From: Ostreococcus lucimarinus
Taxonomy: Eukaryota
Reading direction: 5' to 3' (one strand)
NCBI GenBank assembly: GCA_000092065.1
Contig: CP000584.1
Length of the DNA: 64,000 nucleotides
Positions 14,805 to 20,093 of this stretch are shown in pieces. How positions within the stretch are numbered: the first letter of the stretch is position 1; each line of letters opens with the position of its first letter. The notes beneath the pieces were generated by a model. That model was not told the origin of the DNA and did no database searches. It worked only from the letters and a program-made list of their open reading frames with translations. A program made the position numbers and the translations under genes.

Positions 14805-16271
14805 CTAAACCTCCCGAAACGGGTTCGTTTCGCGTCGTCGTCGCTGTTCGCTGCGTTGCCTCGTCTTCGTTCGAACGAAGCGATACACGATGACGCAAAA
14901 GCCAACGACCCAAGTAAGGCTTCCCATCGTCCACATGCGATGCATCCGTTCTTCGTGCGCAATTTCTCGCTCGACTTTTAACGTGGCTTTCCTCGCTAAC
15001 AGACGCTCTGTGGCGTCACCCGCACGCTCCGCTCGATGCATCACCGGGACTGGCGTCGGCTTTTGCGTCATTCTGGGTTTCACCTTAGGATCCTCTCGCG
15101 ATGGCTTCATCGGTACGTCTCTTCCTTTAGGTATTATCGGCAACGACTTTGTTTCGACTCGATGACTACGAGCGCCCCGCCCGCATTTCTCATCGTTGTA
15201 CTTTTTCACTGCGTCGTTGATCGCCGACACCGTGATGTACATAATTTTCACCTTGATGTAATTGTGACGCTCTTGCTGCAACGCGTGCGCGCTCGGGCGC
15301 TTCGGGTAAGGCACAACGGGGAACGGTTCCACATCTCGCGTGGCGCACGTCATACGCTCCAAGTGCCCAGGCTCCCAATGTTTATCCCACGAGTACGGGC
15401 CCTCGTCCATCCTCAAACCGTAGTGCACGATGAACGGGTCGGCGCTTGCCTCATCCCACGGCTTCATACCTGCGTACAGCTGTACGGATCGCATCACGTT
15501 GTGCGTCAACCCCGCCAACCCGCAACCGAAGACGAACCCGTACATTTCCGAAATCCACGGCCTTGGCGATTCCTCGGAGACGTACACGTCGCCGGTGCCG
15601 CGATACGGAAACCAAATCCTCTTATCCATGCGCACCTTCACCGTTTGCGCAAACCAGTGCGGCGTCATGTTCACAAAATCTTCAGCGTCAAATATCTCCC
15701 ACCCACCCACGGGCGCGAGCCTTTTCTCCACCTCCTCGTCCACGAACCACTTGGCCATTCCGTTCTTCGTGCCGACGAGATAATCGTATTGACCGCTCGC
15801 GGCGACGCCCTTGCTCGCTGGAATCTCTCTCACGCTCAGCGGTTTTAGCAACAACATGTCCGCGTCTAGCTTCACCACCCACTTTCGATCCGTGCCGACG
15901 TTTTGCGCCCAATGATTCATCCCTCCCGGCAAGTTATACGCAGAGTATCCGTCGTCGTCCCCAAACTTTTCCTTGGCGTACCACACGAACGACGGGCACT
16001 TGACCGTGTCCGGCACCACGTCCATGTGTTCGTACCGCGCGTACTCGTCATCCGTGCACGATATCAATCGCGTCATGCGTCCAGGGCTGCCAATCGCGCG
16101 CCACGACTCATACAGCGCGCGCGCCTGCCAAGTCATGTACGGTTGGCAATCGGCGGAAAAGACGTAGTGATAGTCATCGATCTCGCGTCGTTCGCTCGCG
16201 TCGTCGAGGTCGGCGAACGCCAGGGATGCGCGCGCGAGCAGCGCGACGAGCGCGAGGGCGCGCGCGCGCAT
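14805..16271 (-). CDS. HPAT/SGT-like glycosyltransferase (GT95/GT96 family: hydroxyproline O-arabinosyltransferase / peptidyl-serine galactosyltransferase type)
   Basis: ATG at 16271 with a signal or anchor MRARALALVALLARASLAFA. YHYVFSADCQPYMTWQARALYESWRAIGSPGRMTRLISC matches the HPAT core pattern YH.V.TA...Y..WQ.R..Y......PG..TR(L/I). A C-terminal TM is LTWVVGFCVIVYRF. Confidence 0.6.
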   Translation of the reverse strand: MRARALALVALLARASLAFADLDDASERREIDDYHYVFSADCQPYMTWQARALYESWRAIGSPGRMTRLISCTDDEYARYEHMDVVPDTVKCPSFVWYAKEKFGDDDGYSAYNLPGGMNHWAQNVGTDRKWVVKLDADMLLLKPLSVREIPASKGVAASGQYDYLVGTKNGMAKWFVDEEVEKRLAPVGGWEIFDAEDFVNMTPHWFAQTVKVRMDKRIWFPYRGTGDVYVSEESPRPWISEMYGFVFGCGLAGLTHNVMRSVQLYAGMKPWDEASADPFIVHYGLRMDEGPYSWDKHWEPGHLERMTCATRDVEPFPVVPYPKRPSAHALQQERHNYIKVKIMYITVSAINDAVKKYNDEKCGRGARSHRVETKSLPIIPKGRDVPMKPSREDPKVKPRMTQKPTPVPVMHRAERAGDATERLLARKATLKVEREIAHEERMHRMWTMGSLTWVVGFCVIVYRFVRTKTRQRSEQRRRRETNPFREV

Positions 16272-16406: not shown

Positions 16407-17492
16407 TCACGGATCTAACATCCAAGGCTCGGCGGCGGCGAGGTCGATTTCTTTCGATCGAACGCGCTTGCTCAACGCCTTCACCGTGTGCGAATCCTTG
16501 GCGAGCTTTCGTTCGAGCTCCACGAGCCGACGACGATCGCTCGCGCGCGCTTCGTCGACGGATTGCAAAGCATCGCGAAGAAACTCGATGGTTTCGCTCG
16601 CCTCCGCGAGCATGGTCTCGGCTTGGCGCTTTTCTTCCGCGAGTCGACGAATCTCTTCGTCGCCGCGAAACGGCGACGCCGTGGGCGTCGGGGCGGGACT
16701 TCGTCGAGGCGTATCCGCCAACTCAACCGTCGCGGTCTCGATAAATCTATTTGGTGTTTTCACCGGTGGCGTGCGCGCGATGAAGTCTCTCTCTCTCGTC
16801 GCGACGCCGCGCGCCAAATCGACGGCGTTTCGTCTGAGCTCGAGCAAGCGCCGAGAGAACCCGTCGCGATTGAGATCGCGGCGCGACACCAAGCCCGCGA
16901 CGACGAACGTCCCGGCGAGTATCGCGCTCACGGTGATGATTTGTAAGACGAACAAGACCGCGTTCGCCGCCATTCGCAGCGAGCTCGGCAACACGTACAG
17001 CCAAGCGCCCGCGACGTACACGGCGCTCGACGCCGCGAGCGCTCGACGAACCCACGGCGCGTCGAACTCAACGCCCGTCACCGCTCGATACCACCGATCG
17101 ACGCTTCGCGCGAGCTGCGACACGTCCGCTTCCATCGCCGTCGGCGTTCCCGCCGTCGTCGGCGTCCCCGCGGCTCGAAACGCGCGCGCCGCGCTCTCCA
17201 TCGCCAGTTTCCCCGTTCGTCCCGCCCTTCGCATCGTCCGCCTGCGCCCGGACCCGACCGTCGGGCTCGTGACGTATCCATCGGACGTCTCCTCGCCGCG
17301 CGCGTCGTCGCCGCTCGTCGTCGGTCCCGCGGTGTCGTCGGCGTCCGGTGGATTGGACGCCTCGGGACACGCGCGGTGCCAGTACCCGTCCTCGCCGCGC
17401 TTCGTGTACCGCGCGTGTCCCACGCACGTGCGCCCGCACGCGCGACACGGTTTTTTCACCCTCGCCGGACCGGAGGGAGGGTCGGCGTCCAT
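16407..17492 (-). CDS. hypothetical membrane protein: N-terminal zinc ribbon, two TM helices, C-terminal coiled coil
   Basis: ATG at 17492 (MDADPP...). The ORF-track start at 17621 adds an Arg9 low-complexity leader. The zinc ribbon is CRACGRTCVGHARYTKRGEDGYWHRAC. The TMs are AVYVAGAWLYVLP and VLFVLQIITVSAILAGTFVVAGLV. The coiled coil is EEIRRLAEEKRQAETMLAEASETIEFLRDALQ. Confidence 0.45.
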   Translation of the reverse strand: MDADPPSGPARVKKPCRACGRTCVGHARYTKRGEDGYWHRACPEASNPPDADDTAGPTTSGDDARGEETSDGYVTSPTVGSGRRRTMRRAGRTGKLAMESAARAFRAAGTPTTAGTPTAMEADVSQLARSVDRWYRAVTGVEFDAPWVRRALAASSAVYVAGAWLYVLPSSLRMAANAVLFVLQIITVSAILAGTFVVAGLVSRRDLNRDGFSRRLLELRRNAVDLARGVATRERDFIARTPPVKTPNRFIETATVELADTPRRSPAPTPTASPFRGDEEIRRLAEEKRQAETMLAEASETIEFLRDALQSVDEARASDRRRLVELERKLAKDSHTVKALSKRVRSKEIDLAAAEPWMLDP

Positions 17493-17769
17493 CGCGCGGC
17501 GACGACGGCGTCGACGTCTGCGGGCGGTCGGCGTCGAACCGCGGCGTAACACCCACCTCGCGCGCGTCGTCGACACACGACGGCGCGCGGCGCGAGCGGG
17601 CGCGTCGATCGACGACGGCATGGCGGAACGCGCGCCGTTACTGATCGCGCGCGACGTCGAGGCGGCGGTGTCGACGCGCGAGGGCGCGCGCGCGACGCGC
17701 GAGGGCGCGGGCGAGGGTGTTGGGGCGACGGACGAGGATGACGGGTGGTTGGCGCGCGCGAGGGGCGCG

Positions 17770-19089
17770 ATGATGGACGCGACGACGCGACGGGGATCCG
17801 TGGGGCGTCTCTCGAGCGCGTTGGCGCTCGTCGGTGCGCTCGCCGCGCTGGCGTGCGTCGCGGGACTCGGAGGCGATCGCGGCGTCGCCGCGCGCGCGGG
17901 GCTGGGAAGCCATCACGGGCACAAGAAGGAAATACTCGAAGGCTCGACGAAGAATTGCGTGAACGCGGCGGCGGATAACGCGGCGGGGACGTTTCAGATG
18001 GAGACGTCGAAGTGCGAGGATTTGTCGACGCCGGGGTGCGTCGGACATCGATCGATGTGTCGATTTTGCCAGACGCACATGGCGACGAATCGAAACCACG
18101 ACTGGCCGGTGTGCCCGGCGACGGTGTGCGCGGAGAACGACGTGCACGGGTGCAAGTCGGAGTCGGGGAAAAAGATGACTAAACGGGAGTTGGCGTGGGA
18201 TATCTTGCGCCAGCACGTGCTCGATCACAATAGCATGGTGGCGGGCATCAAGATTGGAAAGTGCCACGGCAATTCGCAGGATCACGGCTTGGGGCGGTAT
18301 CAATACAGCGACTCGCAGTGTTTACGGTCGGGCTTGCCCGGTTGTCTCGGTGCGGGCGCAGCGTGCCGCTTTTGTAACGTGAAGAACGCGAAGAAGGCCG
18401 GTAATGAGTGGCCCACGTGTCCGATGGCGGTGTGCGACAAGTACGACGTGAAGTCAAAGTATTGCGCAAAGCTCACGCAATACCACGTGCCGCCGGAAAC
18501 GCCCCCAAAGGATTGGGATGAGAAATCTTTACCCGATACGATGTCCGTCGAACTCGACGAAGACGACGAAGATGCAGATTCGTTGAAGTTGAAGTCTGTG
18601 AAGTCGCACCATCAACACAAACACAAGCATAGCGAAGATGACGATGACGATGACGATGACGATATCGATGCCAAGCCCGTCTCAAAGCACTCAAAGCATA
18701 GCGACAGTGCCGGCTTAGGTGAAGACGAAGGTGAAGACGATGACGAGTACTACTCCAAAGAAAGTACTATACCGGTGGAGGCGGACGACGACGACGACGA
18801 CGACGACGACGATGAGGAAGATGAGGAAGATTACGAAGATGACGAGGACGAGGACGAGGACGAGGACAAATCGCACGTCAAAAAGCATCATCATCATCAT
18901 TCCAAGGTCAAGTTAGGTAACCAGGCTGCGCTAGACGACCAGGCCATAGTACATACCCACAAGAATGAGCAATCGGTGAAGCAGACGCATGCGGCGTCTG
19001 ACCTCGACTCTTTGGTTTTTGAAGAGATTGACGTCGAAGCGATCTCTTCCGAACGCGGTAAAAAGAGATCATCGCGAGGGACAGAGTAG
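17770..19089 (+). CDS. secreted protein with two novel cysteine-rich repeats and a poly-Asp/Glu plus His-rich tail
   Basis: ATG at 17770 gives the signal peptide MMDATTRRGSVGRLSSALALVGALAALACVAG. The ORF-track start at 17620 abuts the divergent gene. Repeat 1 is PGCVGHRSMCRFCQTHMATNRNHDWPVCPATVCAENDVHGC. Repeat 2 is PGCLGAGAACRFCNVKNAKKAGNEWPTCPMAVCDKYDVKSKYC. The tail is HHQHKHKHSEDDDDDDDDD...EADDDDDDDDDDEEDEEDYEDDEDEDEDEDKSHVKKHHHHH, and (GAC)9 occurs at about 18785-18811. Confidence 0.55.
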   Translation: MMDATTRRGSVGRLSSALALVGALAALACVAGLGGDRGVAARAGLGSHHGHKKEILEGSTKNCVNAAADNAAGTFQMETSKCEDLSTPGCVGHRSMCRFCQTHMATNRNHDWPVCPATVCAENDVHGCKSESGKKMTKRELAWDILRQHVLDHNSMVAGIKIGKCHGNSQDHGLGRYQYSDSQCLRSGLPGCLGAGAACRFCNVKNAKKAGNEWPTCPMAVCDKYDVKSKYCAKLTQYHVPPETPPKDWDEKSLPDTMSVELDEDDEDADSLKLKSVKSHHQHKHKHSEDDDDDDDDDIDAKPVSKHSKHSDSAGLGEDEGEDDDEYYSKESTIPVEADDDDDDDDDDEEDEEDYEDDEDEDEDEDKSHVKKHHHHHSKVKLGNQAALDDQAIVHTHKNEQSVKQTHAASDLDSLVFEEIDVEAISSERGKKRSSRGTE

Positions 19090-19124: not shown

Positions 19125-20093
19125 TTACAATTCTTCTACTGCGTCTAAGTCTTGACTCGACGCGCGCCGTCGTCGCCTAGCGAACTTGACACTCTGCGCT
19201 AAAATCGTCGCGTCGAGCGACACAGTGCCAAAGCTCCCCAAAAGCCAAGGCAACGATCGTATCACGTCCGCTCTCGAGTGACTCGCACACAACACCGACG
19301 TTCCGTACGCGACGTTCGCTGTGATGGCGAGCGCGAACATCGTGAGCGACAACCCCTCGACGGAACGCCGTCGTCTATTTTTTGCTATTTGCGCCAAACG
19401 ACCGCCCAAGTAGAAACACGTCGCCAGATACCCAACGCCGCGACCAAAGCTTTGCATCCACGCCGGATTGGCGTTATAATCACAATCAGTGACATTCATC
19501 GCCTCGCGTAACATCCCATTCGACGCTTCTCCCGCGCTATTCGTCGTCATCGTCGTCAACGCCAACGCCGCCGCGCCCGCCAACACGAAGCCGCCCACGG
19601 GCGACATCGGGCTTCGCATCCCCTCGTCTCCGCGCGTCCTCTCCCGCACGTTCTCCTCCTCGCTCGAGCGTTCATCCTCGCTTCCTCGCAGCGGTTCATA
19701 CCCAGACACCGATCCCTCGTCATCGCTCGCGCTCGCTCGCGCTCGCGCGCCGTCGCGTTCGTAATACGTGTACTGACACAGCAGCGCCAAATCGCTCAAC
19801 ACAAAGTACACCGCGGTGTACGTTTGCGTCGGCGCTTGGTCCCCGGTGAGGACGCATCCGATCAAGTTGAACGAGTCCCCGGCCAGCCATTGAAGCAAGA
19901 AGTACGGGCTTAAACCGCGCGCGGATTTCGCGCGATAGTTCAACACGAGCTGCGGGACTTGCGCGCTCATCCAGCACGCTATGGTGACGAGGGCGAGATA
20001 AAAGCCCGCGAGTTGGACGTCATCGCTGACGCACTCGCGAAACGTGACCCTGATCCAGTCCAAGGCGTCCGGGGAGGCGCACGTACACGGCAT
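19125..20093 (-). CDS. PQ-loop repeat (cystinosin/LAAT-like) lysosomal/vacuolar transporter
   Basis: ATG at 20093. The first PQ-loop is VTIACWMSAQVPQLVLNYRAKSARGLSPYFLLQWLAGDSFNLIGCVL. A second repeat occurs near the C-terminus, and there are seven hydrophobic segments. Confidence 0.8.
   Translation of the reverse strand: MPCTCASPDALDWIRVTFRECVSDDVQLAGFYLALVTIACWMSAQVPQLVLNYRAKSARGLSPYFLLQWLAGDSFNLIGCVLTGDQAPTQTYTAVYFVLSDLALLCQYTYYERDGARARASASDDEGSVSGYEPLRGSEDERSSEEENVRERTRGDEGMRSPMSPVGGFVLAGAAALALTTMTTNSAGEASNGMLREAMNVTDCDYNANPAWMQSFGRGVGYLATCFYLGGRLAQIAKNRRRRSVEGLSLTMFALAITANVAYGTSVLCASHSRADVIRSLPWLLGSFGTVSLDATILAQSVKFARRRRRASSQDLDAVEEL

Follow-up and report, generated by a model that had tools for sequence, protein, structure and literature searches.

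An unnamed Ostreococcus lucimarinus gene for a predicted type II membrane protein with paired cysteine domains and an acidic, histidine-rich tail

Results and discussion

The window analyzed here is a 64,000-nucleotide stretch of Ostreococcus lucimarinus contig CP000584.1, and its subject is a plus-strand reading frame that was originally placed at 17770-19089 and described as a secreted cell-surface protein with cysteine repeats and a candidate metal-binding or Ca-binding tail. The frame belongs to a real, conserved, unnamed gene of O. lucimarinus. Its product is best, though still tentatively and short of probably, explained as a single-pass type II membrane protein that would be sorted by adaptors to an endolysosomal or acidocalcisome-like compartment and would carry a cation-binding tail in the lumen. 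According to this explanation, the N-terminal tail would lie in the cytosol, where its acidic dileucine motif would be read by clathrin adaptor complexes, and the protein would be delivered to, or cycle via, an endosomal, vacuolar or acidocalcisome-like compartment; cycling over the cell surface would also be possible. The cysteine domains would be lumenal and disulfide-bonded and would serve as a folded module for binding or scaffolding. The polyanionic tail with its many His would bind divalent cations (Ca2+, Zn2+ or other transition metals) in a low-affinity, high-capacity manner, and protonation of its histidines would make this binding pH-dependent. The protein would work like the histidine-rich Ca-binding protein (HRC) of the sarcoplasmic reticulum, only tethered to a membrane. 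The original prediction was largely right in what it observed; the reading shifts from a secreted surface protein to a putative membrane-anchored, adaptor-sorted lumenal protein. Topology, localization and metal binding are all inferred here at the level of sequence.

Gene model

The frame is open from far upstream in the window and runs without interruption to the stop codon at 19087-19089, so the reading frame first reported at 17770-19089 is genuine. Its proposed start did not hold up, because orthologs point to an ATG further upstream. Eighteen relatives (58-100% identity) matched the N-terminal 262 residues; none is named and none has a Pfam domain. Four ortholog lineages begin 50-60 residues ahead of the 17770 start, with the sequence M-x(1-2)-ERAPLL-x-ARD-x-E, and their N-termini align with the ATG at 17620, from which the product starts MAERAPLLIARDVEA. 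A relative from a fifth lineage, P0003, was called from a later Met, and the upstream part of its contig carries the same extension in frame (MAERAPLLVARDVEA). The 489-aa product from 17620 is present in the protein collection as a called protein with an exact match, and the 439-aa form from 17770 is absent from that collection. Based on the ortholog N-termini, the upstream DNA of the fifth lineage and the 489-aa called form, the coding sequence is assigned to 17620..19089 on the plus strand, as a complete single exon of 489 aa plus stop. The true start is most likely ATG 17620, and the ATG at 17770 corresponds to Met51 of the longer form. The product is collinear with all orthologs through a conserved C-terminal motif (alignment A1).

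The window comes from strain CCE9901. A neighboring HPAT-like protein of 488 aa matches XP_001417500.1/ABO95793.1 exactly. Proteins in the cluster of the studied protein are 488-490 aa long, and the members read have no reference-annotation accession and no name other than "hypothetical protein". Two neighboring proteins do carry NCBI, UniRef or EukProt identifiers, and the gene may be missing from, or modelled differently in, the O. lucimarinus reference annotation. The gene has a GC content of 0.77 at its 5' end, which drops to 0.49 in the region encoding the tail. A GC-rich 21-bp tandem repeat of 3.3 copies (CGCGCGCGACGCGCGAGGGCG) is present at 17646-17713, inside the coding N-terminal tail, and encodes a repeated REGA(R/G)A.

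Sorting motif and membrane topology

The longer start adds about 62 residues ahead of the hydrophobic segment and opens with M-x-ERAPLL. The predicted cytosolic N-terminal tail comprises residues 1-63 (17620..17808, plus strand), of which only the first ~15 residues are conserved in alignment A1. Within these lies ERAPLL (residues 3-8; 17626..17643, plus strand; gaa cgc gcg ccg tta ctg), which has the form of an acidic dileucine cargo motif, [DE]xxxL[LI], with Pro before LL. It is N-terminal to the sole hydrophobic segment, and its cytosolic position is predicted from the topology. The strict motif occurs exactly once in the N-terminal tails of 16 of the 19 non-redundant family members with an N-terminus present, a count that is inflated by common ancestry inside paralog groups. 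Shuffles that preserve composition predict 0.97 members with the motif, and none of 200,000 simulations gave more than 7. The family forms are ERAPLL, ERAKLL, ERQGLL, ENQALL, ERQSLL, ERTSLL, EKLGLL, ERESLL, ETTELL, ETVSLL, ETASLL, ERIALL and EDAPLL. Because the N-terminal tails are otherwise unalignable between paralog groups, the dileucine behaves as a conserved short linear motif.

Acidic dileucine motifs in cytosolic tails are read by adaptor protein (AP) complexes. Yeast alkaline phosphatase, Pho8, is a type II AP-3 cargo with its signal in the N-terminal tail, an arrangement like the one predicted here. AP-3-dependent transport to the lysosome or vacuole requires EREPLL in PQLC2 and EQQPLL in yeast Ypq1, and Pro before LL has been noted as a feature typical of AP-3 cargo (PMC4649669). 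The studied protein resembles these cargoes in that its predicted cytosolic tail contains [DE]xxxL[LI] with a Pro ahead of LL (PMC4649669). However, the motif alone is shared, with no homology, and adaptor binding and destination are putative in the present case.

The hydrophobic segment LSSALALVGALAALACVAGLGG spans 22 residues (residues 64-85; 17809..17874, plus strand) and is a predicted signal anchor, or transmembrane helix. Its best 19-residue Kyte-Doolittle window scores 2.15, it is the only such segment in the protein, and three Arg are found in the 10 residues that precede it. Equivalent segments of 21-22 residues are present in the orthologs (alignment A1). Since the 22-residue segment is preceded by about 62 residues, it most likely serves as a type II signal anchor and not as a cleaved signal peptide, as judged from sequence. 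A type II topology, with the N-terminus cytosolic and the C-terminus lumenal, would be the most economical arrangement given the 22-residue segment, the Arg-rich N-flank and the Cys-rich C-terminal part, in which 16 conserved Cys lie downstream of the segment. Cleavage between A-R-A and G just past the segment could also occur. The hydrophobic N-terminal segment of the original prediction is therefore present, whereas its description as a classical cleavable signal peptide does not suit 22 residues that follow a tail of about 62.

The segment is followed by a juxtamembrane spacer (residues 86-107; 17875..17940, plus strand) that has a conserved A-x-A-x-LGS and a His/Lys patch, as seen in alignment A1 and in the enrichment of Leu-Gly (LG) dipeptides described below. 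If the hydrophobic segment were instead a cleaved signal peptide, the mature protein would be secreted or held at the surface, where its tail could capture Ca2+ or trace metals from sea water. The A-x-A-x-LGS would then be in place just after the segment, the tail composition would suit metal capture, and the relatives from oomycetes, which have signal peptides and mucin-like linkers, are clearly secreted. This reading is nevertheless considered unlikely. An N-region of 62 residues and an h-region of 22 are atypical of cleaved signal peptides, and a family-wide sorting motif of cytosolic type at the extreme N-terminus would be purposeless if discarded co-translationally. The conserved extension of about 62 residues and the family-wide ERAPLL-type motif argue for a type II membrane protein over the signal peptide and cell-surface location first proposed. 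Furthermore, Ostreococcus is not known to have a wall, scales or mineral; a matrix protein would have no wall or scales to hold it, and the analogy once drawn with biomineralization proteins is not supported.

For the adaptor-sorted type II protein, an endosomal or vacuolar destination is proposed because the dileucine would be displayed on a cytosolic N-terminal tail and be read there by clathrin adaptors. The site of metal storage and the presence of a vacuole in Ostreococcus are unsettled, and in O. tauri metal storage is suspected to take place in acidocalcisome-like vesicles instead of a classical vacuole (PMC4855317). The proposed compartment is plausible since O. tauri is thought to keep its metals in such small vesicles (PMC4855317).

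Several points weigh against this explanation. Besides the shared ancestry behind the dileucine count, the strict motif is missing in two Micromonas-like members, P0096 and P0098. The small-x-small site A-R-A-G-L-G-S just past the hydrophobic segment is conserved, and if a protease were to cut it between A-R-A and G, the lumenal part would be freed from the tail that bears the sorting motif. The vacuole itself has been called uncertain in Ostreococcus (PMC4855317). Acidic low-complexity tails occur in many proteins that have no role in ion storage, and homologs that are fused to a glucanase or have mucin-like linkers, described below, point to ligand or glycan binding as the possible primary function of the folded part.

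Ostreococcus is a model of minimal eukaryotic cells and of trace-metal physiology in marine phytoplankton. If the explanation is true, a membrane protein with a vacuole-type signal and a large cation-binding tail would provide a marker, or a candidate component, of a metal-storage compartment. The overall design, a Cys-rich module joined to an acidic, His-containing ion-binding tail in the secretory pathway, is of an already known kind.

The cysteine domain

The two internal repeats reported after the hydrophobic segment are well supported, with a BLASTP match between the copies at E=2e-16 (37% identity over 63 residues, gapless). Copy 1 covers residues 108-180 (17941..18159, plus strand; domain hidden Markov model (HMM) 3.7e-26), with Cys at 113, 132, 140, 147, 150, 165, 170 and 178. 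Copy 2 covers residues 211-284 (18250..18471, plus strand; domain HMM 1.6e-27), with Cys at 215, 234, 242, 249, 252, 267, 272 and 282. The repeat unit is 66-70 aa with 8 Cys, C-x18-C-x7-C-x6-C-x2-C-x14-C-x4-C-x7/9-C, and the spacings are 18,7,6,2,14,4,7 in copy 1 and 18,7,6,2,14,4,9 in copy 2. This replaces the 40-aa, 6-Cys repeat that was originally described; the unit starts ~27 residues ahead of the PGC at which that pattern began. Some spacings of the earlier pattern need correction, to G-x4-C instead of G-x3-C and to RFC-x10-[DE]WP instead of x7-9. In 21 diverse family members, each of the 16 Cys is invariant or almost invariant. No further copies of the domain were found in the window by a domain HMM scan, and the lumenal part has no N-glycosylation sequon.

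Between the copies lies a conserved inter-domain helix, K-x-E-x-A-W-x-x-x-R-x-H-V-x-x-H-N (residues 188-208; 18181..18243, plus strand), defined by invariant columns and by helix 82-102 of the AlphaFold2 (AF2) model. Copy 2 is followed by a conserved Pro-rich segment, Y-x-V-P-x-E-x-P-P-x-D-W-D-x-x-x-L-P (residues 288-305; 18481..18534, plus strand), with invariant columns in alignments A1 and A2.

The claim that the repeat fits no known family also stands, as no Pfam model covers it. Pfam gave 0 families at E<=1 for this protein, and at E<=10 none covered the repeat in any of 33 family members. A single sub-threshold match to DUF7129 (16.4 bits against a cut-off of 30) was seen in one oomycete protein of the 33 and was rejected; a literature search found no paper that mentions this name. 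A single-sequence search of the PDB sequence set returned nothing.

AF2 run on 7 close orthologs alone gave a predicted local distance difference test score (pLDDT) of 42. This run was replaced by one with a 64-row alignment that combined double domains, including distant ones, with single repeat units, and which reached a mean pLDDT of 92.2 and a predicted TM score (pTM) of 0.74. Each domain is predicted to form a small helix-strand-helix-strand-strand-helix fold, with a 21-residue helix between the two domains. Foldseek found no match at E<=0.001 among 350,542 PDB chains and none at E<=0.001 among viral models. Provisionally, and as judged from the PDB and viral models, no known fold matches the predicted domain. 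The cysteine domain is thus an uncurated family with a confident predicted fold and no PDB relative. Disulfides are argued for by the extracytoplasmic contexts of the homologs, the even number of invariant Cys and the position after the membrane segment.

Two family labels were rejected. The oomycete homolog K3W7B6 carries an automatic UniProt label as a TNFR cysteine-rich domain; both the fold and the pattern, which we take to be C-x(4,6)-[FYH]-x(5,10)-C-x(0,2)-C-x(2,3)-C-x(7,11)-C-x(4,6)-[DNEQSKP]-x(2)-C, are missing. The second label is the high-potential iron-sulfur protein (HiPIP, PF01355), of which the domain could be a diverged form that binds a [4Fe-4S] cluster through Cys 147/150/165/178 and Cys 249/252/267/282. 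HiPIP was the sole PDB-sequence match of the family profile (E=0.04-0.25), although the five matches are near-identical (3 alignments differ at few residues) and amount to one observation. The alignment spans HiPIP residues 6-77 of 85, places HiPIP W60 on the conserved Trp of the domain, and pairs C43, C46, C63 and C77, the cluster ligands, with C147-x2-C150-x14-C165-x12-C178. The ligand spacing of HiPIP (~C-x2-C-x16-C-x13-C) is thereby approached in the long form of the domain only, and the fourth ligand Cys is missing in the short form found in oomycetes. An HMM built from 120 HiPIP homologs scored up to 15.1 bits on real domain units compared to 9.9 for the best of 1065 shuffles, which is suggestive; however, profile-profile comparison by hhalign gave a probability of 0.2-0.9% for three versions of the domain alignment, and the Pfam HIPIP model had no match in the 33 members at E<=10. 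The confident AF2 model shows no similarity to the HiPIP fold. In addition, the domain would be extracytoplasmic in a eukaryote, and we know of no Fe-S assembly for the extracytoplasmic space of eukaryotes. With no significant similarity (best E 0.04), an iron-sulfur domain is highly improbable and the resemblance was put down to chance convergence of the Cys pattern.

Relatives of the cysteine domain

A profile of the Cys region was scored exhaustively against 1.84 billion cluster representatives, which yielded 45 clusters at E<=1e-3 and 11 at E<=1e-30. Most are marine-metagenome proteins of like plan, with an N-terminal tail, one hydrophobic segment, two Cys domains and a charged low-complexity region before or after these domains, and they form several paralogous groups. 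No virus-borne relatives were found in IMG/VR with six peptide patterns, and a literature search for an Ostreococcus His-rich protein returned only Ot-Irt1, which is unrelated.

The weaker matches are oomycete proteins and a fusion to a GH81 glucanase. The oomycete homologs, from Globisporangium ultimum (K3W7B6), Phytophthora nicotianae (W2N2L0 / ETM42912.1), G. polare and [Pythium] brassicae (TYZ59670.1), are likewise uncharacterized. Besides a cleavable signal peptide, they contain 5-10 copies of a 6-Cys short form of the domain, with Thr/Pro-rich linkers in between. The core C-x4-GD-x2-[AV]G-x8-C-x2-GG-x-GC-x4-CRFC-...-C is shared (HMM E 5e-14 to 5e-4), whereas the WP-x-CP-x2-VC-...-C extension, the dileucine tail and the acidic/His tail are lacking. 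The metagenomic protein P0132 is a GH81 endo-beta-1,3-glucanase with an N-terminal membrane segment, four short Cys domains and a C-terminal membrane segment; no other fusion of this domain to an enzyme was found. The secreted oomycete proteins and the GH81 membrane protein place the Cys domain outside the cytoplasm. Its presence in two distant eukaryotic lineages and in a beta-1,3-glucanase fusion, with no curated model, means that it merits a family definition and an experimental structure.

These contexts could also indicate that the studied protein is a cycling receptor or adhesin, with Cys domains that bind a glycan or another ligand, a dileucine that directs AP-2 endocytosis and a tail that serves only for pH-dependent release or spacing. 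The four domain copies appended to the glucanase occupy a position typical of carbohydrate-binding modules (CBMs), yet no structural match to a known CBM or lectin emerged from the fold searches. Multiple copies between Thr/Pro-rich linkers (5-10 in the oomycete surface-type proteins) would fit such a role, as would the paralogs P0109 and P0112, which have the Cys pair without a long acidic C-terminal tail. In all Ostreococcus-type orthologs, however, the acidic/His composition is kept despite free sequence drift, which argues for selection on the tail itself. A receptor or adhesin is therefore regarded as rather unlikely.

A more far-reaching proposal would regard the CRFC module as an undescribed extracytoplasmic fold common to prasinophytes and oomycetes, and its Ostreococcus-type members as an adaptor-sorted, type II, pH-switchable cation store in acidocalcisome-like vesicles; in this full form the proposal is quite a long shot.

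In one paralog group (P0108, P0109, P0111, P0112 and P0113), an extensin-like poly-Pro/SPPPP stalk separates the membrane segment from the Cys domains. Such stalks are the sequence type modified by hydroxyproline O-arabinosyltransferases, which is of note given the HPAT-like neighbor gene.

The acidic, histidine-rich tail

Residues 306-455 (18535..18984, plus strand) form a low-complexity Asp/Glu/His/Lys/Ser tail that contains D9, D10, H5, HHQHKHKH and two x-L-G motifs. It has 41 Asp, 20 Glu, 15 His, 16 Lys, 14 Ser and 0 Arg, which corresponds to 41% acidic residues and 10% His. The runs listed in the original prediction (HHQHKHKH, D9, D10, EEDEEDYEDDEDEDEDED and H5) are all present exactly. 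The tail is followed by a conserved C-terminal motif, A-x-x-L-D-x-x-V-F (LDSxVF; residues 459-467; 18994..19020, plus strand), in which A459, L462, D463, V466 and F467 are invariant in alignment A1.

Among orthologs, the composition of the tail is conserved and its sequence is not. In six Ostreococcus-type ortholog groups, the region past domain 2 (169-212 residues) has 63-92 Asp+Glu and 7-17 His, and the His are always clustered, as in HHHSHHHHHSH, HHHHRHHHH and HHHHH. The DNA of the tail consists of GAT/GAC and CAT runs, with no periodic protein repeat. Microsatellite-like GAT/GAC runs at 18637-18670 and 18784-18867 (D9; D10 and acidic blocks) show small indels between near-identical environmental variants. 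P0008 (97% identical) has D4E where the window has D9, and P0001 shows full identity as far as the D9 run, after which it ends in 10 unrelated residues, probably because of an assembly or frameshift artifact at the repeat.

A cation-binding role of the tail is a reasonable reading of its composition, by analogy with HRC, a protein with >30% acidic residues and 13% His whose acidic runs lie beside His-rich motifs (PMC6171002). HRC would be the closest functional analog, with no homology. Residues 306-455 were counted as comparable to HRC in composition (>30% acidic, ~13% His, lumenal), with alternating His clusters and poly-acidic runs in both, a lumenal site inferred from an N-terminal targeting segment, and a Cys-rich region also present. 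In contrast, HRC is soluble and has nine tandem repeats of 29 residues (HRHRGH plus an acidic stretch), which are not found here, and a C-terminal CxxC cluster. The studied protein is predicted to be membrane-anchored, and its Cys region consists of two folded 8-Cys domains ahead of the tail.

A second analogy, architectural only, is with GPP130/GOLIM4, whose lumenal C-terminal part is acidic. GPP130 is a cycling Golgi type II protein in which the lumenal domain governs a special trafficking route (PMC12250082), and its trafficking responds to Mn (PMC5597328). The two proteins are alike in the type II topology predicted here and in having a lumenal domain; they differ in that GPP130 possesses a coiled-coil stem but lacks Cys-rich domains, and their sequences are not similar.

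In 19 members, the lumenal regions outside the domains have more LG dipeptides than expected, with 37 observed compared to 11.5 expected from shuffles, in a test that ignores common ancestry. They recur as an x-L-G-x motif, [AS]-x-[ASRK]-L-G-[SKEG], in relatives from P0003 to P0131. Two LG sites are conserved in position within otherwise unconserved sequence, namely the A-x-LGS after the anchor and H-run-S-x-x-[KRQ]-LG after the last His run. The motif may be a processing or modification site, and the protein could be a precursor that is cut at x-L-G-x sites (after the anchor, in the tail and after the last His run) into a soluble Cys-domain protein and acidic/His-rich peptides. The enrichment and the two fixed sites are what such a precursor would show, but the motif is short and we know of no protease with x-L-G-x specificity. 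Processing of this kind appears improbable; it would be compatible with, and does not exclude, an adaptor-sorted type II protein.

Neighboring genes

The HPAT-like gene (14805-16271, minus strand) lies 1.5 kb from the studied gene, and the distance in the original prediction was right; another gene is situated in between. A functional link with this glycosyltransferase, as the remark on proximity might suggest, is not supported, since there is an intervening gene and the shared order would be expected from general collinearity. The order with the HPAT-like and PQ-loop neighbors is conserved in other Ostreococcus-type contigs, as expected among congeneric genomes.

The downstream neighbor (19125-20093, minus strand) is a PQ-loop protein with two PQ-loop repeats (E=8e-32). 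Members of the PQ-loop transporter family elsewhere are lysosomal or vacuolar and are sorted via AP-3 by acidic dileucine motifs (PMC4649669). The adjacency in related contigs is probably collinearity.

The divergent neighbor (16407-17621, minus strand) encodes a conserved protein with four sub-cutoff Pfam matches only (E 0.006-0.35), a CxxC...C near the N-terminus, hydrophobic segments and a coiled-coil-like C-terminal region. The palindrome CATG is common to its first ATG and that of the studied gene. Its ortholog (32%, 346 aa, E=1e-27) shows similarity only from residue 56 onward, and for this reason the true start of the neighbor may be Met44 (17492), which would leave ~128 bp between the divergent starts.

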